From Klebsiella pneumoniae (GTDB taxonomy: Bacteria > Pseudomonadota > Gammaproteobacteria > Eutrophobiales > Eutrophobiaceae), in the NCBI GenBank assembly GCA_945870865.1, contig CAMBTO010000003.1, forward strand, positions 11,478-75,477: 64,000 nucleotides of DNA, in the 5' to 3' direction. The position numbers and the translations under genes were made by a program. Shown in pieces: positions 24,729 through 45,879 of this stretch. Numbering within the stretch: position 1 is the first letter of the stretch; every line of letters begins with the position of its first letter. The notes beneath the pieces were generated by a model that did not search any database, was not told where the DNA came from, and worked only from the letters and a program-made list of their open reading frames with translations.

Positions 24729-25454
24729 TTAAGGTGCGATTTCGTTCCCGTCCCAGGCGTAGATCCTGCCGCTGTGTTCCGGTTTCAATGTGTCGATCAC
24801 GTTCAGTAGCTGTCCGGCTGAATACTCACCTGTAAACAGTTTCTCCGGCTTGACCGACATGGCGAACGGTCTGGACAACTCGCTCTGTACGGTTCCCGGA
24901 TGCAGGCCGACGACGATGGCCAGTTTGTTGCGGCGGGCGATCTCGATACTGGCGGTTTTGAGTATCATGTTCAGCGCGGCCTTCGAGGCACGATAGGCAT
25001 ACCATCCCCCAAGTTCATTATCACTGATACTACCGACACGGGCGGTCAGTGCGGCGAACACACAGCGTCGCTCCCGGTTCAACAGTGGCAGGAAGTGTTT
25101 GGCAACCAGTGCAGGCCCTGTGGTGTTGACGGCAAATATCCGCGCCAGTTTTTCAGCGGACAGATCACGCAGCGATTTCTCGGGCTGAAAATCCACAGTA
25201 TGTAATATGCCCGTGGCTACAATGACCAGATCCAGCGGGCCATAGCCACTCGCCACTGCCGCGGCGGACTCAATGCTGTCCTCCTGTTCTATATCGATTT
25301 GATGGTGGAACACATTGGTTTTGTCAGACACGAACGGTCGGCGCGCGAACGCATGCAAGGTGCCGGTGTCCGGGCGTGCTGACAACAGGTGGACGAACCC
25401 CGCACCAACGGCGCCGCTGGCGCCTATGATGGCAATATTCAGTTTGTTATTCAT
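24729..25454 (-). CDS. Short-chain dehydrogenase/reductase (SDR)
   Basis: 241 aa. The Rossmann motif is IIGASGAVGAGF and the catalytic pair is YRASKAAL. It is the last gene of the minus-strand operon. Confidence 0.85.
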   Translation of the reverse strand: MNNKLNIAIIGASGAVGAGFVHLLSARPDTGTLHAFARRPFVSDKTNVFHHQIDIEQEDSIESAAAVASGYGPLDLVIVATGILHTVDFQPEKSLRDLSAEKLARIFAVNTTGPALVAKHFLPLLNRERRCVFAALTARVGSISDNELGGWYAYRASKAALNMILKTASIEIARRNKLAIVVGLHPGTVQSELSRPFAMSVKPEKLFTGEYSAGQLLNVIDTLKPEHSGRIYAWDGNEIAP

Positions 25455-25463
25455 AACGTAGGC

Positions 25464-26432
25464 TCAGGTGAGTTTATTGACCCGGGCAGCGAGCAGGTTT
25501 GCACTGGTAAAGGCGGCCTCGACGTTGCCGCGGATACACCAGTCACCACAGGCCGCCAGGTGATTGCGGGTGTCGATCAGGTAATTCTTGCCCGCTGGCA
25601 CGGACGTCTCTGCATAGCGCCAGCGATGCAGTGCGATATGGGCGGGCGAGGCTAGGTCTATCGCTAATTGCCGTTGCAGTTCCGTCAACAGCGTGTGTCG
25701 GACCTCATCCTGATCGTCTTCCAGATGCGTCTCGGCCCAGTCATTGTCGGAGTGGACAACCAGCGTAAAGGGGAGATCGCGTCCAGGCTTGCTCGAATTC
25801 ACACTGATCCAGCGGATCGGCGAATTCTTTACCATCGCCGCATCGAACTTCAACTTCAGGGGCTGGGCCAGGCCCAGCATCAAGGTGTAACACGCGCGCA
25901 TGGTTGCCTGCCCGGGCACGGTCTGCCCGCTGTACAGGTCTGCAAATACAAGCCGGGTCTGCGGTGCCGGCGCACTGCTGATGACCCAGTCATACGGACC
26001 GAGTATCCGTCCATCACCCGTCTGGATGTTCCATTGTTCACCATGGCGCACCAGCGCGGTCACCTCGGTCTGCAACTGGATCGACAACCCCTCGGCCAGT
26101 TTTTTTGCCAGCGCATTCATCTCCGGTGCGGCGACATAATGCGGTTCAAACCAGTCACGTTTGTAGGGTTGTTCGCCGGCGTTTAAGGTCAGCACCCGCG
26201 GCTTCCATTGCTGTAGCAGGCCGGACTCTAAATGGGGCCGCATGAATGCCTTGAACGCACGAGTGCGGATGGTCAGGTATTGCGTACCATGATCAAAGTG
26301 AAACGGGTCGGCATGGCGTGTGCTCAGGCGCCCGCCCACGCCATGCGACTTTTCCAGCATAGTCACCTCGGCCTTGAGCCGCTGCGCCAGTGTCAGGCCG
26401 GCCATGCCGGCACCGATTACGGCAATTTTCAC
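25464..26432 (-). CDS. NAD/FAD-dependent oxidoreductase (renalase/COG3380-like)
   Basis: 322 aa. The GTG start gives MKIAVIGAGMAGLTLAQRL (dinucleotide-binding GxGxxG). The C-terminus is GDWC.. Its start overlaps the stop of the TonB-dependent receptor by 1 nt. Confidence 0.8.
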   Translation of the reverse strand: MKIAVIGAGMAGLTLAQRLKAEVTMLEKSHGVGGRLSTRHADPFHFDHGTQYLTIRTRAFKAFMRPHLESGLLQQWKPRVLTLNAGEQPYKRDWFEPHYVAAPEMNALAKKLAEGLSIQLQTEVTALVRHGEQWNIQTGDGRILGPYDWVISSAPAPQTRLVFADLYSGQTVPGQATMRACYTLMLGLAQPLKLKFDAAMVKNSPIRWISVNSSKPGRDLPFTLVVHSDNDWAETHLEDDQDEVRHTLLTELQRQLAIDLASPAHIALHRWRYAETSVPAGKNYLIDTRNHLAACGDWCIRGNVEAAFTSANLLAARVNKLT

Positions 26433-28825
26433 TAGAACTCCAGCGTCAGTCCCAGTTGGGGGAAGGTGTCGAGTCCATCGATCTCCACCTCGCCAGTGCG
26501 CGGGCTGAATTCCTGTTCGTCCACATTGGCGCGTCCGAGCACGTTGATGACGTCGATAAAGCCGATGATATTCATCGCATTAAAACTACGACGGTAATCG
26601 ACGCGTATATTCAGTGTCTGGAATGACGGGTGCCGACCGGTATTGCGCAGCGTTATCTCGCGTGAGTAGCGCAGGTTTTGCAGGTCATTCAGCACATTGT
26701 TGTAGATGATGAAATCATCCGACGGGCGTCCCGAGGAGATCTGGTATTGTCCAGACAGTGCCCAGCGGTCGTTCGGTTCGTAGCTGACTGTCATGCTGGC
26801 CAGGTGCGGGCGATTGAAATCAGTCGGGGTCTCACCGCGACCGTCATTTCGGTCGGTGACGGAGTGGTTATAACTGTAGCGCAGGGTCGCAGACCAGCTG
26901 TCCAGAAACCGTCGCGACAACAAGGCATCGAGACCGGCGCTCCAGCCATCGGCGTCATTGGTCAGGCGGCCAGTGACCTGATCGTTCTCGACGATCAGAT
27001 CGTCCAGTTGCTGGTAATAGGTCTCGACCAGCAGTCGGTAGTCCCGATTAAAGTAATGTTCAACACCAAGGCTGATCTGGCTGCTGCGTTCCGGTTCAAG
27101 ATCAATGTTAGCCGGATTGGCGGCGATCTCAAGCAGACGCGGCGGCTGGTAATACAGCCCACCCGTCAGCGAAAAGCGGGTCTCGGCGCGGTATTGCCAG
27201 TTCGCCTGAAACCGCGGTGAAATATAGGTGGTATCCAGTAATCCATCATAGTCTACACGTACGCCGGGCCGCAGTGAGTAGGGGCCCGATTCAAACGCCT
27301 GATCCAGATATACCGCACCGCGGGTGGCCGATTCTTCCAGCCTGGTGTTGTAGAAGGCAGGCGACAGGATCGCATATTGCAGCAAGGGGTCGGCACGAAA
27401 GTCGTTGGTGTCATAGGTAAACACTGGATAGTCGCGGGTGACGGCGCGTTCGTAATCCAGCGTCAGATAACTGAGTCGACTACCGGCCGAGAATTCGCCG
27501 AACCGGTTTGACTGGCGGTAGTCCAATCGCCAGCCGGTTTCCGAGTCGGCCTCATTGAGCGTGATGATCGGGTCTTCGACAAACAGTTCATCCGCATCGG
27601 CGTCAAGCGGACTGCGCTCCGGAAACGCCTCGCCCTGGCTGTTGTCATCATCGGCGGAACGGTAGTAAACCGCGTTACGCAGACGACCGCTGTTGCCCAT
27701 CAGATATTCGACCACCACACCCAGCATACCGGCGTGTTGTTCGCTGTTGATGATGTTGGTGTCCTGGAAGTTTTCCGAGGCAAGTACATTTTTTGCCTTG
27801 CGCGTGTAGTGTTCAGGTGTGTAAAGACCTATCAGTTTGACGGTGGTCTTTGCATTGAGACGGCTTACACTCTTGAAGATGAAATCAGACAGTTTCGGGG
27901 CACCAAGGTCTTCTTCACCGATCGTTTCAAACAACCAGCCGAAGTTGTAATGCCGCAGCGACAGCAGCACGGTGGTATTGTCGAGTGCAACGGCCGGGCC
28001 GTCATACAGGATTTCACCGCCGGCCAGATCCAGCTTCACACTGGTGAATGGTGTCTCCGGGTTGCCCTCGGTGATCGCCAGTTTTAACAGTGAGCCGTTC
28101 GATCCGCCTTCAGCTGCCTCCCAGCCTCCAGGCTGGAACGCGGCCTCACCGACGACATTCTGACCGAAGATGGAGAAACGCCCACCACCTTCCAGATCGT
28201 CCTCTTCTCCGAGCGACTGATCAAAATGCACCAGCCGGTCATACGGTAGGCCGTCTATCAGGATCAGGTTGTCGCGTGGACCACGTCCGCGGACGGTGAA
28301 GTCGGAGAACTCGCCGGTTGCAGACACACCCGGTAATGTATTCAGGCCACGAAACACATCACCGGCTGTACCTGGAGCCCGACGGATCTCCTCGCGGTTC
28401 AGACTGGTGGCGGCGACCGATCCGTAAGGTGACATCTGTGTCGCCCTGGCGGTGACGATCACCTCCTCGATTTGTACGCGTAGCTGTTGCAGCGAGAAAT
28501 TCAACGGCATGGTCTTGTCTGCAATCAGGCGAAACCCGTTTTCCTCGGCCTCGCGATAGCCCTCCAGCGTGACGCCGACGGAGACCAGACCGACAGGCAG
28601 GGCAGGGCTGGCATAACTACCGGCCGCATCGCTGACCAGTGTGGCAATCTCCTTGTCCGCCTGGCGGATTTGAATACGGGCCGCGACCAACGGTCGTCCG
28701 GTCGTCGCATCGACGACCGTTCCGACCAGACGCGAGTCTGCTGCATGCACGGGCAGGGCGATTGTCAGTATCAATAACAGTGCACATAGTCTGGTCAGTA
28801 TTTGTAATATCAGATTTGCTTTCAT
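26432..28825 (-). CDS. TonB-dependent outer-membrane receptor with N-terminal carboxypeptidase-regulatory-like domain
   Basis: The start is taken at MKANLILQ (28825), followed by a signal peptide ending in VHAADS. Then come a CarboxypepD_reg-like segment, a plug domain and a long beta-barrel ending in the terminal LTLEF. Confidence 0.9.
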   Translation of the reverse strand: MKANLILQILTRLCALLLILTIALPVHAADSRLVGTVVDATTGRPLVAARIQIRQADKEIATLVSDAAGSYASPALPVGLVSVGVTLEGYREAEENGFRLIADKTMPLNFSLQQLRVQIEEVIVTARATQMSPYGSVAATSLNREEIRRAPGTAGDVFRGLNTLPGVSATGEFSDFTVRGRGPRDNLILIDGLPYDRLVHFDQSLGEEDDLEGGGRFSIFGQNVVGEAAFQPGGWEAAEGGSNGSLLKLAITEGNPETPFTSVKLDLAGGEILYDGPAVALDNTTVLLSLRHYNFGWLFETIGEEDLGAPKLSDFIFKSVSRLNAKTTVKLIGLYTPEHYTRKAKNVLASENFQDTNIINSEQHAGMLGVVVEYLMGNSGRLRNAVYYRSADDDNSQGEAFPERSPLDADADELFVEDPIITLNEADSETGWRLDYRQSNRFGEFSAGSRLSYLTLDYERAVTRDYPVFTYDTNDFRADPLLQYAILSPAFYNTRLEESATRGAVYLDQAFESGPYSLRPGVRVDYDGLLDTTYISPRFQANWQYRAETRFSLTGGLYYQPPRLLEIAANPANIDLEPERSSQISLGVEHYFNRDYRLLVETYYQQLDDLIVENDQVTGRLTNDADGWSAGLDALLSRRFLDSWSATLRYSYNHSVTDRNDGRGETPTDFNRPHLASMTVSYEPNDRWALSGQYQISSGRPSDDFIIYNNVLNDLQNLRYSREITLRNTGRHPSFQTLNIRVDYRRSFNAMNIIGFIDVINVLGRANVDEQEFSPRTGEVEIDGLDTFPQLGLTLEF

Positions 28826-29223
28826 GGCGCAACCTTGATAGATGGATGACAAATTTGTGTATTTTCAGCGCGGCGCGGACCCGAGATAAAACGCTCAAGT
28901 CGACCATTTGACCGAAGGATGGCGATCAGCATATACAGGCATGACCCCAGATTACCTGATAACAGCAGTGCCAGTATCCATAGCAGTGCGACAGACCGGT
29001 GTGGTTCACGCCACCATATCCAGCAGGAAAACAGTAACAGACCAGTATAGAGATCAACCAGAGACATCACGCCCCAGGGCATGTCCAGCAGCACCCTGCC
29101 TTCGCTCATCAGGTCACCGTTTAAAAATGAGTGGATCAGAAACCCGACCATCACCCAGCTGCCGATGGCCGCAGCAATAAAGGCCGGCCAGAACGGGCGT
29201 ACGGACTCGACCCAGCGACTCAC
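28822..29223 (-). CDS. Small membrane protein (DUF1475-like by memory)
   Basis: The listed ORF extends to 29439 but overlaps the upstream gene by 220 nt. A GTG at 29223 overlaps the upstream TGA (GTGA), and its TGA overlaps the receptor ATG (ATGA). It has 133 aa and about 4 TM segments (DMPWGVMSLVDLYTGLLLFSCWIWWRE). Confidence 0.5.
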   Translation of the reverse strand: MSRWVESVRPFWPAFIAAAIGSWVMVGFLIHSFLNGDLMSEGRVLLDMPWGVMSLVDLYTGLLLFSCWIWWREPHRSVALLWILALLLSGNLGSCLYMLIAILRSNGRLERFISGPRRAENTQICHPSIKVAP

Positions 29224-30011
29224 AACAGCCTCGACTTGCGGGGAAACGGGAAGAACATGTTTGTGGTCTGCTGATAAGCCACATAGGCCTGGCCACGGCT
29301 GCGCAACGATTGTTGTTCGGTATACGGTACACCGGTGATGCGGGTGATAAACACATACATCACGACCAGACCGAGCCAGGTCAGCCACCAGTAAGCGGTG
29401 CCCACGCCGAGCAGCACATAGGCAAACCAGTGCAGCCATTCAAAGAAATAGTTCGGGTGTCGGCTGTAGTTCCACAGCCCGACGCGACAGACCTTGCCCT
29501 TGTTTGCCGGATCCTTACGGAAACGGGCGAGTTGATGGTCACTGATCAACTCGCCTGCTATCGAAACAGTCCATATCAGGATACCGATCAGGTCGAGCGC
29601 CGTAATTCCGGGGCCGGTATTTTGTGCCGCTGCCCAGAACGGCATCGCAAACAACAGGGTCCAGGTGGCCTGTACCTGGAAGAAGATGAACATGACCAGT
29701 GCGGCATATTTGCCCGAGGACTTGCGCATATGGCGGTATCGCCCGTCCTCGACCTCGTGCATGACCCGACCATACAGAAAACTGCCGAGGCGGAACCCCC
29801 ACAACACAGACAGTGCGACGATGATGTACTGACGGGCATTGTCCTCAACGGTATCAAACAGGATCAGCCCGACACCGACCAGCGGGGTCATGAATGCCCA
29901 GGCCACATCGACAATGCCCGCATTCTCGGTGCGCAACTGGATGGCCCAGAGTATTGCCATGATCACAGCGGCGATGGCCCAGACATACAACAATAGTTCA
30001 CTGATATTCAT
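29220..30011 (-). CDS. DUF1295 family membrane protein (steroid 5-alpha-reductase/ICMT-like fold)
   Basis: 263 aa, multi-TM, with the hallmark YSRHPNYFFEWLHW. Confidence 0.8.
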   Translation of the reverse strand: MNISELLLYVWAIAAVIMAILWAIQLRTENAGIVDVAWAFMTPLVGVGLILFDTVEDNARQYIIVALSVLWGFRLGSFLYGRVMHEVEDGRYRHMRKSSGKYAALVMFIFFQVQATWTLLFAMPFWAAAQNTGPGITALDLIGILIWTVSIAGELISDHQLARFRKDPANKGKVCRVGLWNYSRHPNYFFEWLHWFAYVLLGVGTAYWWLTWLGLVVMYVFITRITGVPYTEQQSLRSRGQAYVAYQQTTNMFFPFPRKSRLL

Positions 30012-30556
30012 GGTATGACTCCGGTGTAGTGCACAGGTTTGTCGTATCGGTTATACAGCATTGCCAGCCACACCAGCAGTGGCATAGCCAACATCCACAA
30101 CAGAGCTATGGCGATCAGTGGCAGGTAACCCGCCTCCAGTGTGATGGCATCCAGTTTGGTCCCGGCGAAATACGCGAGCGGTCCGGCGATACCACCGAGC
30201 AGGGCCGCCAGCAGATAACGGTTCCTTAACCAGACCAGCGAGTGGTTTAGCGTAAGTGCGAGGTTGATCCAGAGTGCCACCATCCAGACGGTTGAGGGTC
30301 CGCCCAGTTGTGCATGAGGCGGAAACGCCATCAGACCGGACAGTACCAGCAAGGAATCAGCGCCATACCCAATAAGTGCGGCCGTGATACACAGACGCAG
30401 ATCAGACAGACGCTTTTGCGGGTAATTGGTCATATGAAACAGGAGCCAGCACAGGCTGAACATTGGACCTATCCAGGTCAGACCTTGTCCGGCCGGCATT
30501 ACATTGACCAGCCAGGCCAGATCAAAGATCACCGCATTTAGTACAAAATGAATCAC
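30008..30556 (-). CDS. Membrane protein, DUF2878-like (by memory)
   Basis: 182 aa with 5-6 TM segments. Its stop overlaps the DUF1295 start by 4 nt. The family assignment is tentative. Confidence 0.55.
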   Translation of the reverse strand: MIHFVLNAVIFDLAWLVNVMPAGQGLTWIGPMFSLCWLLFHMTNYPQKRLSDLRLCITAALIGYGADSLLVLSGLMAFPPHAQLGGPSTVWMVALWINLALTLNHSLVWLRNRYLLAALLGGIAGPLAYFAGTKLDAITLEAGYLPLIAIALLWMLAMPLLVWLAMLYNRYDKPVHYTGVIP

Positions 30557-30688
30557 GGCTCAATCACAGGATAAATGGCCATTCTGACGCCCGCCAAGCT
30601 AGACCCCGCCGGGGGGGGGGAGGACAGGCGACAGGCAAACGCCAGAATGACTCAATCACTATTGTAGGCATGTTGTGTGACAGGCTGA

Positions 30689-31978
30689 TTACGTTGTGTG
30701 AGAATCTGATTGCCCAGCGACCTGCAAGGGTAAGCGGCCTGCCTTCGGTTTGTGCATCAACAGGTGCACATCACCGAGGTAACGCTCACGGAAACCGGCC
30801 TCGCAGTAACACAGGTAGTACTCCCAGATCCGCATAAACTTCTCGTCATAACCAAGTGCGGATATCCGCTCGCGATTGGCGCGGAAATTGTCCAGCCAGC
30901 AGTGCAGCGTGGTCGCGTAATCAGGGCCGATGTTTTCGATATGCTCGATACGCAGGTCGGTATGGGTGGTCGCGGCGTTTAACATCGCCGTCAGCGAGGG
31001 CACACAACTGCCTGGGAAGATAAACTGCTGGATAAAGTCAGTGCGCTTCAGATACTGCGCATAACGCTGATCCGGCATCGTGATCGCCTGGATCAGCATG
31101 TGCCCATTGTCCTTCAGCAACGAGGCGCACTTGCTGAAATAACGGGGCAGGAATTCATGCCCGACTGCCTCTATCATTTCAATCGATACCAGGCGGTCAT
31201 ACTGTCCTTCAAGGTCGCGGTAGTCGCACAGTAATAAGGTAATTCTGTCCTGTAGCCCGGCAGCTGCTATGCGCTCGCTTGCCAGTTTATACTGGTCCTT
31301 CGATATGGTGGTCGTGGTGACCTTGCATCCAAAGTGTGTCGCGGCATGTATGGCAAAGCTGCCCCAGCCGCTACCGATCTCGATCAGATGATGGCTGGCA
31401 TTAAGCTCCAGTTTGCGGCAGATAGTGTCCAGTTTCTCGATGGAGGCCTGTTCGAGTGTGGCGTCCGGCTGGCGGAAGATACCGGCCGAATAGGTCATCG
31501 TCCGATCGAGAAACAGTTCGAACATGTCATTGCCAAGATCATAATGTGCGTGAATATTTTCCTGGCTGCCCTTGCGGGTGTTGCTGCGCAGACGGTGTTT
31601 CAGCGTCTCCCAGAAATTCATCAGTCTGGCGGTGCCGGTTTCAAACGCATACAGTGACTCGATGTTACGCGTCATGATCCGCAGCAGCGTAGTCAGATCC
31701 GGGCACGACCACAAACCGTCGCGCCAGGCCGCTGCGGCACCCTTGGTGCCGGAGGTCAGTATCTGCTGGTAGAAGCGCATATCATGCACGGTCACGGTCG
31801 CATCAATGCGGTTGCCGACACCGGTAAACCACTCGCCGCGCGGGTCACGGATCATGATGGTACCGTTTGCCATATTGGCCAGTCGTTTTTTCACCGCCTC
31901 GCGTGCCAGCAGTGCCATGCTGCTGTGTCGACTGGCGGTGACGGTCGTGTTTATCTCTGCGACAGTATTATTTTTCAT
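30689..31978 (-). CDS. Cyclopropane-fatty-acyl-phospholipid synthase-like SAM-dependent methyltransferase
   Basis: The start is taken at MKNNTVAE (31978), in an ATGA overlap with the DUF1365 stop. Motifs: [14 protein letters not shown], the SAM motif [12 protein letters not shown] and a C-terminal [12 protein letters not shown]. Confidence 0.9.
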
Positions 31979-32748
31979 CGCTTTACCTCGTTGTTCAGGA
32001 TTTTGGGGTGTGGGAAGAACGGTGTCTTTTTCAGCCATAGCTTCAGCGCCTGCCAGTAGATCGCGCTGATGACCTTCAGTGTCATCAGTGGATAATTAAT
32101 CAGTACCCGCGCGAGGTTCCACGCCGTGATCGGCATGGCCTCAAGATCCATCTTCGCTGTGAATACCTTGCCGTCCTGTTCAAATGTATCCATGTTGACA
32201 TGCAGCTGCCTGCCAGGTGCCGACAGGGACCATTCGTAATGCTGGTCCATTGGCATGAACGGCGAGACGTGAAACTGTTTATCAAAGCTGAAGCGATGAA
32301 GCAACCGGTTGTTACAGGAGTTGGCACAATCCAGCACATAACAATGGGTCTCGTTCCAGGGGGTGTTATGCACCTCGGCGACAATAAAGCGCAGGTCCCG
32401 AACCTGCTCATCCCAACAATAATAGAAGCTGACCGGGTTCATGCAGATACCAAAATAACGCAGATGTGTCAGCAGTCGCACAGCACCGGTGTGCTGTTTG
32501 CCGGTCCGTTCCAGGATCAATTGCCGTATGGCGGTATCGAGCGGCACGTTTGGGTCACCATAATGATCCGCACGCCTGAACCACGCCAGCGCAGGTCTGC
32601 GCGCAGACCAGAACGGCACGCCCTCAAACAATTGCTGCAGCTCAGCCAGATCCAGATACATCTGGAACAAGTTGTAATGAAAACCGTGATAACGCGGCTG
32701 TAGGCGAAAATGGCTGACGCGTCCATGATAGATCGCGCTGTATTTCAT
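31975..32748 (-). CDS. DUF1365 family protein
   Basis: 257 aa. The N-terminus is [33 protein letters not shown], the family's typical opening. It is overlap-coupled to both neighbours. Confidence 0.8.
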
Positions 32749-34942: not shown

Positions 34943-35048
34943 TCGTGCAATCTGCTCGTTATTTATTATTCGAATTGTGAGAGAGTGACCGTGAACGGTG
35001 TGTGCAGCAGGTGTGAAAGTTAGGTGAAATCCAGGGCGGAGTTGGTAA

Positions 35049-37032: not shown

Positions 37033-37161
37033 CTTTATTATTGTAGTACGTTGGCTTTAAATATTTTCATTATCGTGCCTTATATGTGAAATTTTCGTGA
37101 ACGTGAGTACCGCGGGAATAAATAGACATTATCGTCAGTAACAACTGCTATTATAAATTAT

Positions 37162-38463
37162 ATGAATATATTCTGGTTTCGACGTGACCTGCGGCTGGAT
37201 GACAACGCCACCTTGTACCAAGCCTTGCAGGCCGGTTCGGTATTGCCGGTCTTTATTTTTGACAGTGATATCCTTGATCTGCTGGAAGACCGGGACGATC
37301 GACGCGTCAGTTTTATCCATCAGCAACTTACACTGATCAAGTCGCAACTTGAACAGGCTGGCAGTACGCTGCTGGTTATGCATGGCCGCCCGCTGGACGT
37401 GTTCGCAAAGCTACTCGCCCTGCATCGTATTGAAACTGTGTATGCCGGCAATGATTATGAACCGTATGCGCGTGAGCGTGACCGGGAGGTAGCTGGGCTG
37501 TTGCAAGCGCACGGTGCACAACTGGTGCTGGTGAAGGACCATGTCATCTTTGAGCAGGATGAAATACTGAAGTCCGACCATACGCCGTATCTCGTCTACA
37601 CCCCTTACATGCGTGCGTGGAAGCGCAGGTATCAACAGGAAACCCCCGCCGCGTATGCCACGCAGGATCTGCTGGACGGTTTACTGGCGGAGGTACCCGC
37701 CGTGATGCCTACACTCGAACAAATTGGTTTTCAGCGAGTGGACAATCCGGTACCGGATCCCCTGCTGGACCCGCAGTTGATCCGCATCTATCACCTGCAT
37801 CGCGATTTCCCGGCACTGGATGCAACCAGTCTGATCGGGCCGCACCTGCGTTTTGGTACGCTCAGCATCCGCCGTCTGGTTGAGATGGCGGAGGATCTGA
37901 ACCCGGTCTGGATGAACCAGCTGATCTGGCGCGAGTTTTTTATACAGATATTATTTCATTTTCCGCACAGTGCGACGGGCTCGTTCCGTCGCGATTATGA
38001 CCGTATACCCTGGTGTAATAACGTTGTTGAATTTGAGCGTTGGTGTGCAGGGCGCACCGGGTTTCCGATCGTCGATGCGGGAATGCGCCAGTTGAACGAG
38101 ACCGGTTATATGCACAACCGGGTCAGGATGATCACGGCCAACTTTCTGACCAAACTGTTATTGATAGACTGGCGCTGGGGCGAACAGTATTTCGCGAGGA
38201 AGCTGCTCGATTACGAGATGGCGAATAATGTGGGTGGCTGGCAATGGTCGAGTGGTTCCGGCTGTGATGCTGCACCGTATTTCCGCATCTTCAATCCGGA
38301 CACCCAGATCGAGAAGTTTGACCCGGAGCTGAAGTATATCCGGCGCTGGATCCCTGAATTTGAAACGGCGGACTACCCGATGCCGATGCTGGATTATCGA
38401 CAGGCACGCGAACGCGCCATGTCGGTATACAAGTCTGCGCTGAAAGCCGCCGCCGCGTTATAG
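37162..38463 (+). CDS. phr: Deoxyribodipyrimidine photolyase / cryptochrome-family flavoprotein
   Basis: 433 aa. The N-terminus is IFWFRRDLRLDDN. The FAD-binding C-terminus has TGFPIVDAGMRQL..TGYMHNRVRM and GGWQWSSGSGCDAAPYFRIFNP. Confidence 0.93.
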   Translation: MNIFWFRRDLRLDDNATLYQALQAGSVLPVFIFDSDILDLLEDRDDRRVSFIHQQLTLIKSQLEQAGSTLLVMHGRPLDVFAKLLALHRIETVYAGNDYEPYARERDREVAGLLQAHGAQLVLVKDHVIFEQDEILKSDHTPYLVYTPYMRAWKRRYQQETPAAYATQDLLDGLLAEVPAVMPTLEQIGFQRVDNPVPDPLLDPQLIRIYHLHRDFPALDATSLIGPHLRFGTLSIRRLVEMAEDLNPVWMNQLIWREFFIQILFHFPHSATGSFRRDYDRIPWCNNVVEFERWCAGRTGFPIVDAGMRQLNETGYMHNRVRMITANFLTKLLLIDWRWGEQYFARKLLDYEMANNVGGWQWSSGSGCDAAPYFRIFNPDTQIEKFDPELKYIRRWIPEFETADYPMPMLDYRQARERAMSVYKSALKAAAAL

Positions 38464-38744: not shown

Positions 38745-39599
38745 GTGATGAACTGGAACGACTGGATTGCAGCAAATGAGGTATCGATACGCACCGGATT
38801 TTTTCTCAGCGTGTTTACCTTGATGGCGGTTTGGGAACTGCTCGCACCTAGACGAAAGGCGATGCTCGGTCGTCAGCAGCGCTGGTCAGCAAACATCGGA
38901 CTGGTTATCCTGAACAGTATCGTTCTGCGTCTGTTGTTCCCGGCAGCGGCTGTGGGTGTGGCCGTATATGCTACACAACAGGGCTGGGGCCTGATGCATT
39001 TATTATCCGTGCCCTTGCTGCCTGCTGTTGTCATCAGTGTGGTCCTGCTCGATCTGATTATTTATTTGCAACATGTGATGGTACATAAGGTGCCGGTGTT
39101 ATGGCGCCTTCACCGTGTCCATCATGCGGACCTCGATTATGATGTGACCACCGGTGCACGTTTCCACACGCTGGAGATCGTGCTGTCGATGCTGATCAAG
39201 TTTGCTGCCATTCTTCTGTTCGGCGTCCCTGTCGTTGCCGTCGTGATATTCGAGGTCGTCCTCAATGCAACCGCGATGTTTAATCACAGCAATATCCGCC
39301 TGCCGGAACCCATCGACCGGGTGTTACGTTACCTGCTGGTCACACCGGACATGCATCGCGTCCACCATTCCATAGAATATGATGAAACTAACAGTAATTT
39401 CGGATTTAATCTGCCGTTGTGGGACCGACTGTTTGGCACCTACCGTGCACAGCCTCGGGCAGGGCATACCGACATGATCATCGGGCTCAGTAACTTCCGG
39501 GACCCGCACCAGGTCAACCACTTGACGGGCATGCTGGTGATGCCGTTTGTTGCCCAGGTCAGAGATGATTCCAATAACCTACATTCCCCCCGAAGATGA
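38745..39599 (+). CDS. Sterol desaturase / fatty acid hydroxylase superfamily membrane protein
   Basis: 284 aa, multi-TM, with His boxes (YLQHVMVH, HRVHHAD, HRVHHS). Confidence 0.85.
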   Translation: MMNWNDWIAANEVSIRTGFFLSVFTLMAVWELLAPRRKAMLGRQQRWSANIGLVILNSIVLRLLFPAAAVGVAVYATQQGWGLMHLLSVPLLPAVVISVVLLDLIIYLQHVMVHKVPVLWRLHRVHHADLDYDVTTGARFHTLEIVLSMLIKFAAILLFGVPVVAVVIFEVVLNATAMFNHSNIRLPEPIDRVLRYLLVTPDMHRVHHSIEYDETNSNFGFNLPLWDRLFGTYRAQPRAGHTDMIIGLSNFRDPHQVNHLTGMLVMPFVAQVRDDSNNLHSPRR

Positions 39600-39651
39600 G
39601 AATATGGCAGAAACCTGATAAGTTGGAGGCTATAAACTTAATAACACTAAC

Positions 39652-40341
39652 ATGACTGGGGAGACTGATATGTTAAAAATGATACACGTTGTGAAAATAC
39701 TGATGATAGGCACGATAACCATTCATCTTGGTTGTGCCGCTGTCGATAAGCGACCGACCACTGAAGCTGAATACAATGCGTCCTTGCCGGGTGATGTCAG
39801 TCCGGAATCCCGGGGTCGATTGCCCATTATAAGTCGGGAGGCCCTCGATGATGCAGGCAAAGCTACCTATGATCGATATATGGCTCCGGATTCGACATCA
39901 CTTGCCGGCATACAGGGGCCGGGGGGGATCCGCTTACACGCTGGCGTCGACAAGAGCCCGACCCGAATAGACAACAAGGTCAGTGAGCTGGTGCGTCTGG
40001 TGATTGCGCGTGAAATGGATCAGAAGTTTGAATGGACCATGCATGAACCGGTCGCCCTCAAGGCCGGTCTGACCCCTGCCACTATTGATGCGATACGTCT
40101 TCGCAAATTATTGCAGGGCGTCCCGGAAATGGAGGCCTCCATCATTCAGATGGGCAGGGAAATATTTCAGGAGCATCGGGTCAGTCCGGAAACCTACCGT
40201 CAGCTTTCAAGCCATTTCGGTCCGCGTGACCAGATGGAAATCGTCGAGTTGATGAGTGGCGGCATGAACAGCTTTTTCCTGTTGTTCCTGTACGATGTTC
40301 ATCTTCCGTACGACAGACCCTCACAGTTGCCCGTAGAGTAA
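39652..40341 (+). CDS. Carboxymuconolactone decarboxylase (AhpD-like) family protein, probably exported
   Basis: 229 aa with an N-terminal hydrophobic signal ending in HLGC. The CMD-like core is ELVRLVIAREMDQKFEWTMHEPVALKAGLTPATIDAI. Confidence 0.6.
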   Translation: MTGETDMLKMIHVVKILMIGTITIHLGCAAVDKRPTTEAEYNASLPGDVSPESRGRLPIISREALDDAGKATYDRYMAPDSTSLAGIQGPGGIRLHAGVDKSPTRIDNKVSELVRLVIAREMDQKFEWTMHEPVALKAGLTPATIDAIRLRKLLQGVPEMEASIIQMGREIFQEHRVSPETYRQLSSHFGPRDQMEIVELMSGGMNSFFLLFLYDVHLPYDRPSQLPVE

Positions 40342-40446: not shown

Positions 40447-40476
40447 TTGACATCCTGATCACGGAGTAAATATAGG
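40447..40476 (+). promoter_or_regulatory. Candidate sigma70-type promoter upstream of the radical SAM operon
   Basis: TTGACA (40447..40452), then 17-18 nt, then ATATAG/TATAGG (40470..40476). It is followed by the perfect 14-bp palindrome GGCCAACATTGGCC (40488..40501). Pattern match only. Confidence 0.25.
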
Positions 40477-40661
40477 GTAATACAAGCGGCCAACATTGGC
40501 CACGCGGCAAAAATTCAGCAGGCATTTGTATACACTTGTCGATGTCAGGTGATGAAGTTTTAATTCATAAGATTATTTTTATATCAACTGTAATAACCGG
40601 GCGGATCAAAGCGACTAGATACGGTTAACCCGGGATAAATCTTTATTATTAAAGGACAATT

Positions 40662-41642
40662 ATGCACGCTACCTTGCCTTTGCTGGAACGCTCTGACTTT
40701 CCGCCTATCAGTCGAGAGAGCCTCACCACCCTGCAGGTCAATCTTGGTTATAAATGCAACCAGAGCTGTCTGCATTGTCATGTGAATGCAGGCCCGACTC
40801 GTACCGAGATGATGGATACGGCAACCCTGGCACTGATCCCCGATGTCATACGTGCGCGTAATATCAGTACGCTCGACCTGACCGGTGGTGCGCCCGAATT
40901 ACATATGGGTTTTCGGGGGCTGGTGCAGTCCGCACGCCAACAGGGTGTGCATGTGATAGACCGTTGTAACCTGACCATCCTGTCCGAGCCGGGCCAGGAT
41001 GATCTGGCAGATTTTCTGGCCGTGCACAAGGTCGAGATTGTGGCCTCGTTGCCGTGTTACTCCATGGAGAATGTAGACAGGCAGCGTGGAACGGGAGTGT
41101 TCGAACGCAGTATCAGTGGCCTGCTCGAATTAAATCGACTCGGTTATGGTGTGGACGGTTCGGGGCTGCTGCTGAATCTGGTCTACAACCCGCAAGGACC
41201 GGTGTTGCCTCCGGACCAACACAAGCTGGAGGCAGACTACAAGCGTGAACTCGGTAATCGTTTTGATATCGTCTTTAATAATCTGTATGCATTGACGAAC
41301 ATGCCGATCCAGCGTTTTGGTTCGACATTGATATCGAAGGGGCAGTTTGCAGATTATATGACGTTGCTCCGGCACAATTACGCCGCCGCCAATCTGGACA
41401 ATGTGATGTGCCGTACCTTGATCAGTGTGGACTGGCAGGGGTATTTATACGATTGTGATTTTAACCAGATGCTGGGGTTGCGGGTTCCCGGCAGTTTTTA
41501 TCATGACAAACAACCACATCTGCGTGACCTGATGACTGTGGATCCGAAGGGCACACCGATCCGCGTTGCCGATCACTGTTATGGTTGTACTGCGGGTAGC
41601 GGTTCCAGCTGTGGCGGTGCGATCGCGGTCGCGACCGAATGA
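40662..41642 (+). CDS. Radical SAM/Cys-rich domain protein (ArsS-like)
   Basis: 326 aa. The radical SAM cluster motif is CNQSCLHC (CxxxCxxC). The C-terminal Cys-rich tail is HCYGCTAGSGSSCGGA. Confidence 0.85.
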   Translation: MHATLPLLERSDFPPISRESLTTLQVNLGYKCNQSCLHCHVNAGPTRTEMMDTATLALIPDVIRARNISTLDLTGGAPELHMGFRGLVQSARQQGVHVIDRCNLTILSEPGQDDLADFLAVHKVEIVASLPCYSMENVDRQRGTGVFERSISGLLELNRLGYGVDGSGLLLNLVYNPQGPVLPPDQHKLEADYKRELGNRFDIVFNNLYALTNMPIQRFGSTLISKGQFADYMTLLRHNYAAANLDNVMCRTLISVDWQGYLYDCDFNQMLGLRVPGSFYHDKQPHLRDLMTVDPKGTPIRVADHCYGCTAGSGSSCGGAIAVATE

Positions 41643-43789
41643 AAAAATGGTTGATCCTGCCGGTACTGGTGTTGCTCGCGGCGGCATTTTACTGGCTGGG
41701 ACTCAACCACTGGTTGACGCTGGAGGGCATGCAGTCGGGTATCGATCACATCCTGACAGCGCGTGAGGCGCGGCCGTTGCAGACCGCCGTAATATTTCTG
41801 GTCGTCTATGTCATGGTCACCGCGCTGTCGTTGCCGGGCGCTGTCGTAATGACACTCGTCGGAGGTGCGCTGTTCGGTCTGTGGTGGGGAACGCTGATTG
41901 TTTCGTTCGCCTCCAGTATCGGTGCATTGCTCGCATTCCTGGTCTCACGATATCTGTTGCGCGAAACCGTGCAGTCGCGTTTTGGTGATCGATTAAATAC
42001 GATTAATGCGGGGATCCAGCGCGACGGTGCGTTTTACCTGTTCAGCCTGCGGCTGATACCGGTGTTTCCGTTTTTCCTGATCAATCTACTGATGGGGCTG
42101 ACGACGATGTCCGCGTTGACCTTTTACGGCGTTAGTCAGTTGGGCATGCTCGCAGGCACGTTTGTCTATGTAAATGCCGGCACCCAGCTTGCGCAATTAA
42201 CTTCCTTGTCCGGCATACTCTCGCCCGCGATCGTACTCTCGTTCGTCTTGCTCGCGACCTTCCCGTGGCTGGCGCGGACCGGGCTGAACAGCTGGCGCAA
42301 ACATCGGGTGTATGCCCGTTGGCATCGCCCTGCAAAATTTGAACGCAACCTGATTGTGATCGGGGCAGGCGCGGCCGGTCTGGTGTCTGCCTATATCGGT
42401 GCGGCGGTGAAGGCGAAGGTCACCTTGATCGAGGCACACAAGATGGGCGGCGACTGTCTGAACTACGGCTGTGTCCCGAGCAAGACGCTGATCAAGAGCG
42501 CCCGCATCGCATACCAGATACGCCATGCGGATCGCTACGGCCTCCAGGCCGGTCAGCCCCGTTTTTCATTCCGGCAGGTGATGGCACGTATACAGCAAGT
42601 GATACGTGAGATTGAACCACACGATAGTATCGAACGTTATACTGCACTCGGTGTGGAGGTCTTGCCAGGCCATGCGCGTATTATTGATCCGTGGACAGTC
42701 GAGATTACCCTCGCCGGTGGAACGATCCAGCGTTTAACCACCCGCAGTATCATCATCGCCGCCGGGGCAGCGCCGTTTGTCCCGCCGTTGCCCGGGCTGG
42801 AACAAACCGGTTATCTGACCAGTGATACGCTGTGGGAGGCGTTGGCGAATCACGAGGTCCCACCTGAGCGGATAGTTGTACTCGGAGGGGGGCCGATAGG
42901 ATGTGAACTCGCACAGGCGTTCGCCCGACTCGGTTCCCGCGTCACGCAGATTGAAATGGGACCACGCCTGCTGATACGTGAAGATGATGAAGTCTCGCAT
43001 CTGGTGCAGCAGTCACTGGAGGCAGACGGTGTGAGCGTCCTGACCGGCCATACGGCATTGCGCTGCGAGCGCGAGGGCGATTATAAATACATCATCGTCG
43101 AACAGTCCGGCCAGACCACGCGGGTCCCGTTTAATGAACTGATCTGCGCAGTCGGTCGTGCCCCGCGTCTGGCCGGTTATGGTCTGGAACAACTGGGTAT
43201 ACCGACCAACCGTACCGTTATCACGAATGAATATCTTGAAACCCTGTATCCAAATATTTACGCGGCCGGTGATGTCGCCGGGCCATACCAGTTTACCCAC
43301 ACAGCCGCACACCAGGCCTGGTATGCGGCAGTGAACGCCTTGTTTGGCGATTTTAAAAGATTCAGGGTAGATTACAGCGTGATACCCTGGACTACATTTA
43401 CCGATCCAGAAGTGGCCCGGGTCGGACTGAATGAACAGGAGGCCGTTGAACGCGGCATCGCCTATGAACTGTCGCGCTACGAGATCAACGAACTGGACCG
43501 TGCCATCGCCGAGGGAGTGGCGTATGGGTTTATCAAGGTGCTGACCGTCCCCGGCAAGGACCGGATCCTCGGTGTGACCATTGTCGGTGAACATGCTGGC
43601 GAGTTACTGGCCGAGTTTGTGCTGGCAATGCGCTGGGGTCTGGGCCTGAATAAAATCCTCTCGACCATACATACGTATCCGACGCTGTCTGAATCAAACA
43701 AATATGTGGCCGGTGTATGGAAACGTGCACACGCGCCGCAGAAATTATTGCAATGGGTTGAGCGTTACCATCACTGGCGCAGGCAATGA
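41639..43789 (+). CDS. Fusion protein: TVP38/TMEM64 (DedA-superfamily) membrane domain + FAD-dependent pyridine nucleotide-disulfide oxidoreductase
   Basis: 716 aa. The N-terminal 230 aa or so are multi-TM and DedA-like (LIPVFPFFLINLLMG). Then come GAGAAG, the redox-active GGDCLNYGCVPSK and a C-terminal dimerisation domain (HTYPTLSE). It starts in an ATGA overlap with the upstream gene. Confidence 0.85.
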   Translation: MKKWLILPVLVLLAAAFYWLGLNHWLTLEGMQSGIDHILTAREARPLQTAVIFLVVYVMVTALSLPGAVVMTLVGGALFGLWWGTLIVSFASSIGALLAFLVSRYLLRETVQSRFGDRLNTINAGIQRDGAFYLFSLRLIPVFPFFLINLLMGLTTMSALTFYGVSQLGMLAGTFVYVNAGTQLAQLTSLSGILSPAIVLSFVLLATFPWLARTGLNSWRKHRVYARWHRPAKFERNLIVIGAGAAGLVSAYIGAAVKAKVTLIEAHKMGGDCLNYGCVPSKTLIKSARIAYQIRHADRYGLQAGQPRFSFRQVMARIQQVIREIEPHDSIERYTALGVEVLPGHARIIDPWTVEITLAGGTIQRLTTRSIIIAAGAAPFVPPLPGLEQTGYLTSDTLWEALANHEVPPERIVVLGGGPIGCELAQAFARLGSRVTQIEMGPRLLIREDDEVSHLVQQSLEADGVSVLTGHTALRCEREGDYKYIIVEQSGQTTRVPFNELICAVGRAPRLAGYGLEQLGIPTNRTVITNEYLETLYPNIYAAGDVAGPYQFTHTAAHQAWYAAVNALFGDFKRFRVDYSVIPWTTFTDPEVARVGLNEQEAVERGIAYELSRYEINELDRAIAEGVAYGFIKVLTVPGKDRILGVTIVGEHAGELLAEFVLAMRWGLGLNKILSTIHTYPTLSESNKYVAGVWKRAHAPQKLLQWVERYHHWRRQ

Positions 43790-44481
43790 TGCAAACCACA
43801 CCCGGCGAACGACTGTCGATTATAGTGCCGATGTTGAATGAGGCAGAGGTCTTGCCGCAACTGCTGGCACAACTGTCCGTATACAGCGCACGTGGTTGCG
43901 AGATAATGCTGATCGATGGTGGTAGCACCGATGATTCCGATACACTGGCACGCAAGGCCGGTTTTACTGTCCTCAACGCGCAGCGAGGCCGGGCAAGACA
44001 GATGAACGCGGGTGTGACATTCGCCACCGGCGACATCTTTCTATTCCTGCATGCGGACACACTGTTGCCCGACAGCGCCGATAGCCTGATTCAGGAGGCA
44101 CTCCGCAAGAATAGGGCGGGATGGGGGAGGTTCGATGTACAGATTACAGGGGAGTCGCTGTGGTTACCCGTCATAGCCAGCATGATGAATCTGCGCTCAC
44201 GCCTCAGTGGCATCGCTACCGGCGATCAGGCGATCTTTGTGCAACGTGATCTGTTTAATGAGGCCGGTGGATTTCCTGATCAACCGTTGATGGAAGATAT
44301 AGAACTCTCAAGACACTTGAAAGAATTTTTACCACCGATCCGCCTGCGTGCCAAAGTGACCACCTCGGGTCGACGCTGGGAGACACGCGGCGTCATCCGG
44401 ACTGTAATACTAATGTGGCGTCTGCGACTCGCCTATTATTTAGGCGTGCCTGCTGAATCGCTGGCGCGGACCTACCGATGA
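43786..44481 (+). CDS. Glycosyltransferase family 2 (rSAM/selenodomain-associated transferase 2 type, by memory)
   Basis: 231 aa. Motifs: LSIIVPMLNE, LIDGGSTD and LFLHADTLLP. ATGA overlaps occur at both ends. Confidence 0.78.
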   Translation: MMQTTPGERLSIIVPMLNEAEVLPQLLAQLSVYSARGCEIMLIDGGSTDDSDTLARKAGFTVLNAQRGRARQMNAGVTFATGDIFLFLHADTLLPDSADSLIQEALRKNRAGWGRFDVQITGESLWLPVIASMMNLRSRLSGIATGDQAIFVQRDLFNEAGGFPDQPLMEDIELSRHLKEFLPPIRLRAKVTTSGRRWETRGVIRTVILMWRLRLAYYLGVPAESLARTYR

Positions 44482-45101
44482 AGATCCATCGTATCGTCAT
44501 CTTCGCTAAGGCGCCGCGTGCCGGTTACGCCAAGACTCGCTTAATTCCGGCACTCGGTGCCGACGGTGCCGCCCGACTGGCCAGACGCATGCTTACGCAT
44601 ATGGTCAATCAGGCGCTGGATGCCGGTGTGGGTCCGACGGAATTATGTATGACACCGGCTGACGATCCGACCTGGGAGGAGACACGGTTGCCGCTTCATC
44701 TAGGAAGAACCGACCAGGGTGAGGGCGATCTTGGCGAACGGATGGCGCGGGCCAGCCAACGGGTTACCGGGGAGGGTGAAGCCATCATTCTGACAGGTAC
44801 AGATTGTCCGCAGCTGGATACCATTTGTCTGCAACAGATCGCAACAGCACTGGAGCAATCGGATGTGGCCATCGTACCGACGACCGATGGTGGATATGCC
44901 GCACTCGGACTGAACCGGTTTGATCCGCTGTTATTCAGTGATATCCGCTGGAGTACCGATACGGTAGCTGCTGAAACCCTGCGCCGAATAGCCACACTGC
45001 AATGGTCGGTGAGCACATTACCGGTGTTACATGACATAGATGAGGTCGCTGATCTTGCTTTGTTACCGGCGGACTGGCCGGAGTATGTACGGAGCGAGTA
45101 G
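44478..45101 (+). CDS. DUF2064 family protein (nucleotidyltransferase-like; rSAM/selenodomain-associated transferase 1 type, by memory)
   Basis: 207 aa. The N-terminus IVIFAKAPRAGYAKTRLIPALG is the family hallmark. TGTDCPQL and DGGYAALG are also present. Confidence 0.75.
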   Translation: MKIHRIVIFAKAPRAGYAKTRLIPALGADGAARLARRMLTHMVNQALDAGVGPTELCMTPADDPTWEETRLPLHLGRTDQGEGDLGERMARASQRVTGEGEAIILTGTDCPQLDTICLQQIATALEQSDVAIVPTTDGGYAALGLNRFDPLLFSDIRWSTDTVAAETLRRIATLQWSVSTLPVLHDIDEVADLALLPADWPEYVRSE

Positions 45102-45879
45102 TTTAATGGTTGCTCAAATACCTCGCCTGTATGTCACCCTGCTGTTGTATTTAATTGCAGGCACCACGGTGGCACAGTCGCCTGCTGTTATCGTGGGTGA
45201 GTTCACCTCAGCGACAAAAATTCCCCCGGCTCCCTGGGAACTCGTGCATCTGGATAAACGCGTCGCCGCCACCCGTTATCAGGTCAAGGAATGGGACGGT
45301 GTCGTCGCGGTCGAGGCAGTCGCGGAAAAAAGTATGGCGCTGCTGGCGCGACCACTCGATATCGACCTCAATCAGACACCGGTGTTGTGCTGGTTATGGC
45401 GTGTCGATGCGCCACTACTCACGGCCGACCTGAACAAAAAGTCCGGTGATGATTATGCCGCACGAGTATACGTTTCATTCAAACTGCCGCGACAACAAAT
45501 CAGCCTCTCTACCCGCATCAAGCTGCGTATGGCACGCACGATTTATGGTGATAAGATCCCCGATGCAGCGATCAACTATATCTGGGACAACCGCTACCCC
45601 ACAGGCACCTTGCAGGCAAATGCCTACACAGACCGGACGCAGATGCTGGTGTTACAAACCGGCGCAGGGCAGGCCGGCCAGTGGGTTGCGCAACGTCAGG
45701 ATGTCCTCGCCGACGCACGTCTGGCCTTTGGCCAGGTGGACCCGGAGGCGGTACAACTCGCCATTGCCACTGATACAGACAATACCGGCGAATCTGCCCG
45801 CGCCGGGTTTGCACAGTTGCATTTTGTTGATCACACTACTCCCTGTACGGTTCCCAAGCTGGGAGGCAAACCGGAATAA
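45085..45879 (+). CDS. Secreted DUF3047 family protein
   Basis: The ORF opens at 45040. Plausible ATG starts are 45085 and 45106. The signal peptide is LYVTLLLYLIAGTTVAQS. The family call is from memory of the composition of this gene neighbourhood. Confidence 0.6.
   Translation: MYGASSLMVAQIPRLYVTLLLYLIAGTTVAQSPAVIVGEFTSATKIPPAPWELVHLDKRVAATRYQVKEWDGVVAVEAVAEKSMALLARPLDIDLNQTPVLCWLWRVDAPLLTADLNKKSGDDYAARVYVSFKLPRQQISLSTRIKLRMARTIYGDKIPDAAINYIWDNRYPTGTLQANAYTDRTQMLVLQTGAGQAGQWVAQRQDVLADARLAFGQVDPEAVQLAIATDTDNTGESARAGFAQLHFVDHTTPCTVPKLGGKPE

Follow-up and report, generated by a model that had tools for sequence, protein, structure and literature searches.

A candidate two-component regulator and a cre-tag-like direct repeat at a furan-fatty-acid-type lipid operon next to a photolyase gene

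The window analysed here is a stretch of 64 kb (contig CAMBTO010000003.1, positions 11,478 to 75,477; all coordinates below are those of the window unless they are given for another locus). It contains a block, 24729-45879, in which a photolyase-family gene lies between leftward and rightward genes. On the left, the genes for an OmpR-type response regulator (RR) and a sensor histidine kinase (HK) precede an operon of lipid-modifying genes; on the right follow a hydroxylase-family gene, an AhpD-like gene and a radical S-adenosylmethionine (SAM) operon. The map of open reading frames (ORFs), Pfam, NCBIfam and independent gene calls on the source contig agree on this layout. We focus on the two-component system formed by RR and HK, on a direct repeat of TTCAC half-sites found upstream of the RR gene and of the lipid operon, and on the question of how far a common regulation of the block may extend. 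The photolyase gene and the left part comprise the following features (scores of the repeats are from a position weight matrix, PWM):

37162-38463, plus strand: photolyase-family gene (FAD_binding_7, 244 bits; DNA_photolyase, 143 bits)
37086-37101, minus strand: direct repeat TTCACgaaaatTTCAC (TTCAC-N6-TTCAC), 53 nt upstream of the RR start (PWM 25.4 bits)
36316-37032, minus strand: OmpR-type RR (Pfam Response_reg, 101 bits; Trans_reg_C, 57.5 bits)
35049-36338, minus strand: HK (Pfam HisKA and HATPase)
34991-35028, minus strand: four half-sites with 11-bp period (TTCAC, TTCAC, TGCAC, TTCAC) between HK stop and desaturase start (PWM 28.0 bits)
33992-34942, minus strand: membrane fatty-acid desaturase of 316 aa, first gene of the operon (PF00487, 66.7 bits)
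32745-33995, minus strand: UfaD-like acyl desaturase of the flavin adenine dinucleotide (FAD) amine-oxidase type (Amino_oxidase and NAD_binding_8)
31975-32748, minus strand: UfaO-like DUF1365 protein (PF07103, 279.9 bits, full profile)
30689-31978, minus strand: CMAS-family SAM methylase in the position of UfaM (PF02353, 288.7 bits)
30008-30556, minus strand: DUF2878 protein (Pfam)
29220-30011, minus strand: DUF1295 protein (Pfam)
28822-29223, minus strand: small DUF1475-like protein (Pfam)
26432-28825, minus strand: TonB-receptor-like protein of 797 aa, CarboxypepD_reg/Plug (Pfam and NCBIfam scans)
25464-26432, minus strand: FAD oxidoreductase of 322 aa (Pfam and NCBIfam scans)
24729-25454, minus strand: short-chain dehydrogenase/reductase (SDR) of 241 aa (Pfam and NCBIfam scans)

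A spacer of 106 bp separates the HK stop from the desaturase gene, and beyond it the minus-strand operon is tightly packed. An earlier, sequence-only reading of this DNA had the genes and coordinates right, but counted eleven genes after the kinase where we find ten. A 134-aa minus-strand ORF (24194-24598), tried as the eleventh, is spurious and overlaps a thioredoxin gene on the plus strand (24278-24652), which is convergent with the end of the lipid operon, matches Pfam Thioredoxin with 89 bits and encodes a WCGPC motif; of 31 substitutions compared to the closest relative, 24 fall on the third codon position of the thioredoxin frame. The first desaturase had been called a delta9 enzyme; PF00487 at 66.7 bits and a weak match to the DesA family are the only basis for this and do not establish its regiospecificity.

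The locus has the features expected of an OmpR/PhoB-type system: an RR with receiver and winged-helix domains, an HK with HisKA and HATPase domains, and direct repeats phased by 11 bp, about one helical turn. The RR stays below the cut-off of every NCBIfam equivalog and comes closest to the CopR/SilR subfamily (200, cut-off 279). According to Pfam and hydropathy, the HK consists of two transmembrane helices with a periplasmic loop of ~80 aa, a HAMP-like linker, HisKA and HATPase, and the loop carries EEA-H-W and RPNTYNLTG motifs that are conserved in a 12-sequence alignment.

The association of this pair with the lipid genes is conserved. One genome per GTDB species was scanned with the DUF1365 protein, which gave 80 loci centred on the DUF1365 gene (ufaO). 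In 11 of them, the genes immediately before the operon, in the same orientation, are those for RR and HK (RR identities of 61-97%), and with ten further genomes the order RR-HK-desaturase-ufaDOM recurs in at least 21 gammaproteobacterial species genomes, RR orthologues of 57-97% identity standing directly upstream of the ufa operons. Relatives of the HK were found with a profile of its sensor region (>580); a scan with the single kinase protein gave only three true relatives. All HKs with at least 48% identity in the sensor region, including those of the ten additional species genomes, are accompanied by desaturase-ufaD-ufaO-methylase-DUF2878-DUF1295 as the next genes. The association survives rearrangement: Hahella sp. 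CCB-MM4 and two Methylophaga genomes have the HK gene at the far end of the operon and a convergent RR gene. Kinases of Lysobacterales (39-45% identity) were rejected as members of the same system: by eye their next ORF encodes an HlyD-type efflux adaptor, and neither ufa genes nor the repeat are present.

The exact sequence TTCACN6TTCAC occurs twice in the window (35013-35028 and 37086-37101) at an expectation of 0.18, both times on the operon strand and in a predicted promoter region. The third-best PWM match in the window reaches 9.3 bits, compared to 28.0 and 25.4 bits at the two boxes. Among relatives, the repeat is located 41-71 nt upstream of the RR gene in all ten whose RR-upstream region was aligned, and the array between HK and desaturase is present in all 11 first compared, including the high-GC locus L058. 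Ten genomes outside the PWM training carry the repeat at one or both expected promoters in nine cases and the HK-desaturase array in eight. Despite their different gene order, Hahella sp. CCB-MM4 and Methylophaga still have the repeat in front of the desaturase gene. As a background, 1.34 Mb of loci centred on ArsS, the radical SAM protein of the right-hand block, contain a single match of at least 17 bits. In the ufa locus L014 a strong repeat of 26.5 bits (3313-3334) precedes the desaturase gene, although the 3.3 kb before it contain no two-component system; the matching regulator gene may lie elsewhere in that genome.

Upstream of the RR gene the second half-site coincides with a -35-like TTCACA, and at both window promoters the promoter-proximal half-site takes the -35 position, as judged from promoter-like hexamers; a generic sigma-70 scan found promoters not enriched (15 vs. 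15.2). Since half-sites at -35 correspond to the geometry of PhoB-type activators, we propose that the phosphorylated RR would bind the TTCAC-N6-TTCAC direct repeats at both promoters. The repeat pair over the -35 of the RR's own promoter would lead to positive autoregulation, while the four-half-site array over the -35 between HK stop and desaturase start would activate the lipid operon. The sequence-only reading had placed the block under an OmpR-type two-component system; for the left operon, the synteny in at least 21 species genomes and the operator-like repeat at both promoters argue that this is likely to be correct.

An identical motif is known from another system. The cre/blr tag of the regulators CreB and BlrA is TTCAC-N6-TTCAC (PMC4689548), so that CreBC/BlrAB and the window system share operator core and spacing as well as the combination of an OmpR-family regulator with a kinase of two transmembrane helices. 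They differ in the proteins and in the regulon: the window RR shares 32% identity with E. coli CreB and scores 134.5 bits against the CreB model (cut-off 273), and the HK scores 100 bits against the CreC model (cut-off 356), with only the catalytic core aligning and a sensor region that is not homologous. The low RR identity, the hidden Markov model cut-offs and the unrelated sensor rule out that the two-component system is CreBC itself, and the tag shared by non-orthologous proteins may reflect convergent operator specificity. It could still be argued from the identity of the tag that the repeats serve another regulator, for example a true CreB/BlrA encoded elsewhere, and that the adjacent two-component system is not their cognate. 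This we consider extremely unlikely, as the repeat tracks the two-component system: it lies upstream of the RR gene itself in every one of the ten relatives compared, follows the system through different gene orders and gives one match, upstream of a desaturase gene, in 1.12 Mb of ufa loci without the system. Moreover, the scanned window ORFs include no CreD-family match and no CreBC orthologue.

The genes behind the four-half-site array resemble those for furan fatty acid synthesis. In R. palustris, RPA2571-2570-2569 (ufaD-ufaO-ufaM) are sufficient for formation of the furan fatty acid 9M5-FuFA; the R. sphaeroides proteins are UfaD (RSP1091), UfaO (RSP1090, DUF1365) and UfaM (RSP2144), and in Rhodobacter UfaO forms the furan ring with O2 (PMC7380195). 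The window trio belongs to the same Pfam families and is adjacent in the same order as RPA2571-2570-2569, but differs in being preceded by a membrane desaturase gene and followed by genes for DUF2878, DUF1295, DUF1475-like, TonB-receptor-like, FAD oxidoreductase and SDR proteins. The UfaD-like gene, assigned at domain level only, overlaps the DUF1365 gene by 4 bp, and the two adjoin in 70 of the 80 ufaO-centred loci; the complete ufaD-ufaO-methylase triad is found in about 70. A desaturase gene precedes ufaD in 33 of the 80 loci, DUF2878 and DUF1295 follow downstream in many, and the order DUF2878, DUF1295, DUF1475-like is conserved in the clade carrying the two-component system. From these families and their order we infer a membrane-lipid modification operon of the furan-fatty-acid type, with a furan fatty acid as the predicted product.

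The methylase scores 274.6 bits against the CFA-synthase (cyclopropane fatty acid) equivalog of NCBIfam, below the cut-off of 400, and no UfaM-specific model exists to place it. It could be a paralogue of the CFA type or of the type of RSP1089, the in-operon CMAS paralogue of R. sphaeroides, which is dispensable for furan fatty acid synthesis (PMC7380195). Together with six additional operon genes of unassigned role, this leaves room for a different product, such as a methyl-branched, conjugated or cyclopropane acyl chain or a modified hydroxy-lipid. We regard such a product as possible but rather unlikely, since the in-operon methylase of R. palustris is UfaM itself and three genes suffice there, since the window operon holds one CMAS gene only, and since the UfaD-like and UfaO-like partners are strongly conserved beside the methylase.

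Two further observations concern the operon itself. The gap between methylase and DUF2878 genes is 133 bp in the window, compared to only 27-45 bp in the relatives L005, L006 and L007, and includes a homopolymer of ten G (30611-30620), possibly a slippage-prone tract or an assembly artefact. The tail of TonB-receptor-like, FAD oxidoreductase and SDR genes (24729-28825) has overlapping or 9-bp junctions and is lineage-specific: L004, the closest relative, is the only one of the 80 ufaO-centred loci to have all three genes. The TonB-dependent-receptor-like outer-membrane protein (26432-28825) has a homologue with 43% identity in L190 (about 2921-5530), where the two-component system and the DUF2878 and DUF1295 genes are close by.

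The product of the photolyase-family gene contains both domains expected of a cyclobutane pyrimidine dimer (CPD) photolyase, the photolyase N-terminal domain and FAD_binding_7, and stays below the NCBIfam equivalog cut-offs (304.8, cut-off 506; 353, cut-off 884.6). The gene is divergent from the RR gene in L004, L005, L006, L007, L009 and L255 as well, and photolyase-family genes are found within 10 kb of ufaO in 15-16 of the 80 loci. A different arrangement exists in L008, a gammaproteobacterial metagenome-assembled genome (MAG), in which the RR gene is divergent from an operon for FolB/FolX, GTP cyclohydrolase I (FolE), an SDR (folM) and photolyase (2219-5456). In the intervening region (5457-5688) three to four TTCAC half-sites form a separate array that is oriented toward the fol-photolyase operon, and the folX-folE-folM-photolyase operon has the same gene set as the Pseudomonas LitR light regulon (PMC9758184). 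The array before this operon suggests a photo-oxidative or light type of regulon at the family level. Hahella has a second, inverted repeat that is directed at SnoaL-like and chalcone-isomerase-like genes, and SnoaL-like genes also occur in ufa loci that encode an extracytoplasmic function (ECF) sigma factor and ChrR. The photolyase gene of the window itself is an unproven candidate for membership.

Similar gene sets respond to light or singlet oxygen in other bacteria. In Rhodobacter the core singlet-oxygen regulon of sigmaE-ChrR includes phrA and the genes for furan fatty acid synthesis (PMC6852236, PMC7380195), in Shewanella phrB and cfa form one RpoE2-ChrR operon (PMC4336711), and in Pseudomonas phrB, ufaM, an SDR and an FAD oxidoreductase depend on LitR and are induced 25- to 33-fold by light, with folE, folX and folM among the LitR-dependent light genes (PMC9758184). 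The sequence-only reading had named a co-regulation of photolyase with SDR, COG2907, DUF1365, CFA-synthase-like and DUF1295 genes as established in light or singlet-oxygen responses, and these papers bear it out.

The two-component system could, however, control the lipid operon in response to a cue that has nothing to do with light or singlet oxygen (for instance envelope stress, temperature, oxygen or membrane fluidity), with the photolyase gene as an inherited neighbour. In the domain scan, the hydropathy profile and the 12-sequence alignment the HK shows no PAS, LOV, BLUF or GAF domain and no conserved Cys, thus neither a chromophore-binding nor a redox-sensing domain; the photolyase gene is divergent from the RR gene only in the six closest relatives, where no repeat faces it; and the first operon gene encodes a desaturase, a typical target of membrane-fluidity control. 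Such a cue appears to us a tentative, less favoured explanation, because the L008 array faces the fol-photolyase operon, the inverted Hahella repeat faces genes of which the SnoaL-like type recurs in ECF sigma-ChrR ufa loci, photolyase-family genes lie near ufaO in a part of the 80 loci, and the same targets are known as light- or singlet-oxygen-responsive genes from Rhodobacter, Shewanella, Vibrio and Pseudomonas. Due to the small periplasmic loop and the lack of a chromophore domain, the HK would perhaps not perceive light as such but an effect of stress on the membrane or periplasm, an assignment that we make only weakly.

Other regulators are found at comparable loci. Among the 80 ufaO-centred loci, 11 encode a LitR-type regulator (MerR with B12-binding domain) near the ufa genes, six an ECF sigma factor and four ChrR. 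In the window, Pfam scans and tblastn with locus-derived ECF and ChrR proteins detected no sigma factor, ChrR, MerR or LitR among ORFs of at least ~70 aa, which fits the statement of the sequence-only reading that such regulators are missing; the search covered the 64-kb window, with three short ORFs (71-94 aa) left out. Matches to the sigmaE-ChrR promoter pattern (TGATC-N15-18-CGTA; consensus from PMC4336711) occur three times in the window versus 2.2 expected, none of them upstream of a gene of the block; the two that lie inside the block are within coding sequence. The window thus resembles sigmaE-ChrR systems (ECF11 in Rhodobacter; RpoE2-ChrR in Shewanella and Vibrio) in the targets photolyase, ufa/cfa-like genes and SDR, but differs from them by having no ECF sigma factor, ChrR or TGATCC-N16-CGTA promoter and by control that we assign to the two-component system. 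Likewise, the targets of class II LitR/CarH (Pseudomonas PplR1/PmlR1) match the genes beside the repeat arrays in the window and in L008, while these regulators are of the MerR type with LOV or B12 photoreception and the window encodes a membrane kinase and an OmpR-type RR, with no sign of a photoreceptor domain. The two-component system of this gammaproteobacterial lineage would thus fill the regulatory place that sigmaE-ChrR or LitR/CarH-type regulators have elsewhere at the same target genes.

The genes to the right of the photolyase gene present a different picture. They are:

38748-39599, plus strand: FA_hydroxylase-family gene (Pfam)
39670-40341, plus strand: CMD/AhpD-like gene (Pfam)
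40662-41642, plus strand: ArsS-type radical SAM protein (TIGR04167, 456 bits, cut-off 300)
41639-43789, plus strand: DedA+MerA-like fusion protein (Pfam/NCBIfam scans)
43789-44481, plus strand: TIGR04283 protein (273 bits, cut-off 182)
44478-45101, plus strand: TIGR04282 protein (196 bits, cut-off 134)
45106-45879, plus strand: DUF3047 protein (Pfam)

The radical SAM operon, previously described as uncharacterised, is an ArsS-family cluster, as TIGR04167, TIGR04283 and TIGR04282 all exceed their curated cut-offs. In this respect it is like the ArsS arsenosugar cluster; ArsS adenosylates dimethylarsenite (PMC13598754). It differs by the DedA+MerA-like fusion and DUF3047 genes and by having no adjacent SAM methyltransferase gene; Pfam and NCBIfam scans detected no arsenite methyltransferase in or beside the window operon. 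In a survey of 80 loci centred on ArsS homologues of 59-71% identity, a class I SAM methyltransferase gene adjoins ArsS in 13 (for example L146, 11101-12207); the enzyme has Cys-rich termini and looks ArsM-like by eye. The missing methyltransferase makes it doubtful that the window cluster produces arsenosugars. The module itself is self-contained: of the 80 ArsS-centred loci, 56 have TIGR04283, 49 TIGR04282, 46 the DedA+MerA-like fusion and 17 DUF3047.

The sequence-only reading had taken the whole 21-kb block, including hydroxylase, AhpD-like and radical SAM genes, as one light or singlet-oxygen regulon under the two-component system and had thereby tied the radical SAM operon to photo-oxidative stress. 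Two features are in line with this, namely the redox flavour of the functions (AhpD-like protein, MerA-like reductase, neighbouring thioredoxin) and the full juxtaposition that is kept, despite insertions and deletions at the junctions, in relatives with 87-90% identical ArsS. Nevertheless, the TTCAC repeat is not found upstream of the hydroxylase, AhpD-like or ArsS genes in the window or its relatives, nor upstream of DUF2878 in the window, and no promoter of the sigmaE-ChrR type precedes these genes. No operator common to the regions upstream of photolyase, hydroxylase, AhpD-like, ArsS and DUF2878 genes emerged, as their shared 9-mers and 14-mers do not exceed those of shuffled sequence (three pairs vs. 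2.5). The 10-mer CGCGGGAATA, present upstream of both photolyase and hydroxylase genes, was discarded as a shared operator, since it is not conserved in L255; the hydroxylase gene has its own conserved -10 element. In addition, photolyase, ufa and AhpD-like genes are found in none of the 80 ArsS-centred loci and ArsS genes in none of the 80 ufaO-centred loci, and downstream of the photolyase gene other genes follow in the relatives, ygiQ directly in L006, L007 and L009, and SRAP and Y-family polymerase (DinB-like) genes in L005.

The juxtaposition is neither unique to this genome, being kept at 87-90% ArsS identity, nor broadly conserved. At 77-78% ArsS identity only contigs with the ArsS operon were recovered, all of them short and one with an AhpD-like gene. 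As the linkage is confined to a shallow clade (ArsS at least 87% identical), recent common descent is its simplest explanation. A single regulon across the whole block is thus very unlikely; hydroxylase, AhpD-like gene and ArsS operon would rather be independent modules in the variable stretch that follows the photolyase gene, and the neighbourhood alone is no ground for annotating the ArsS-type operon with photo-oxidative stress, so that a wrong assignment is averted.

The variability of this region is visible in the closest relative. In L004 (99-2600; same contig as L165) a rhodanese gene is inserted between photolyase and hydroxylase genes, and L004/L165 carry a bufferin-like cluster for a ribosomally synthesized and post-translationally modified peptide (DUF2282 precursor, MbnB/DUF692, DUF2063, DoxX) between the hydroxylase and AhpD-like genes. 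An absence of the ArsS block from this nearest relative was considered and rejected, as the AhpD-like gene is present past the bufferin-like insertion in L165 and the complete arrangement is retained in relatives whose ArsS is 90% identical. ECF sigma genes stand beside ArsS in about 10 of 85 loci (the 80 GTDB loci and five contigs of close relatives), among them L085, L098, L104, L115, L122, L130 and L132, and an ECF sigma factor could be the usual regulator of ArsS operons. In L256 (362-3514), a relative with 78% identical ArsS, the ArsS gene comes right after a series of genes for an AhpD-like protein, thioredoxin, DsbD, an ECF sigma factor and a protein of 224 aa.

Taken together, we think it probable that the block consists of a furan-fatty-acid-type operon controlled by the two-component system (24.7-37.1 kb) beside separate right-hand modules (38.7-45.9 kb). 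Several observations weigh against this interpretation. The spacer between RR and photolyase genes contains the RR-oriented repeat only and none facing the photolyase gene, in the window as in L004, L005, L006, L007, L009 and L255, and relatives differ in how far the photolyase gene lies from the shared repeat (about 57 to 80 nt). The in-operon methylase could be the UfaM orthologue or a paralogue of the dispensable RSP1089 type. The PWM was built in part from the window's own sites, which is mitigated by the independent genomes, and the carriers of the two-component system are mostly uncultured MAGs. A ChrR or LitR system may exist elsewhere in this genome. Finally, metagenome contigs with 87-90% identical ArsS keep ufa operon, two-component system, photolyase, hydroxylase, (AhpD-like) gene and ArsS operon in order, and given this juxtaposition a co-regulation of photolyase, hydroxylase and ArsS genes by some unseen factor is possible.

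Furan fatty acids and photolyase form a conserved core of bacterial light and singlet-oxygen responses. This photo-oxidative lipid and photolyase response is already known, and the window would represent a regulatory variant of it; what appears to be new is an OmpR-type system with a cre-tag-like operator that is putatively wired to a furan-fatty-acid-type operon and, in L008, to a pterin-photolyase operon. A search of open-access papers found none that connects DUF1365 or furan fatty acids to a two-component regulator of their own. To our knowledge, sigmaE-ChrR and LitR-type systems are the only ones for which sensing of light or singlet-oxygen stress is described. If a third, unrelated regulator acts on the same genes, the regulon would be revealed as a functional unit which has been captured by different sensors, and a membrane kinase would give a handle on a signal arising from lipid damage. 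In the most far-reaching version, which we offer as an unlikely speculation, the HK would be a membrane-embedded sensor of photo-oxidative lipid damage or furan fatty acid status that, with the RR and the cre-tag-like operator, displaced sigmaE-ChrR/LitR as master regulator of photolyase, pterin and furan fatty acid genes in a mostly uncultured gammaproteobacterial clade. If true, this would be the first case of a two-component system that senses light or singlet-oxygen stress. The predicted operator is directly testable in cultured Hahella or Methylophaga.

In the photolyase region, a terminator scan found no clear terminator after the photolyase gene. Elsewhere in the window lie two tandem Amidohydro_3 genes (13876-17742), an orphan Hcp gene of type VI secretion (18656-19147) and, to the right of the block, a pair of ygiQ (radical SAM) and rssA-like patatin genes (46169-49354).

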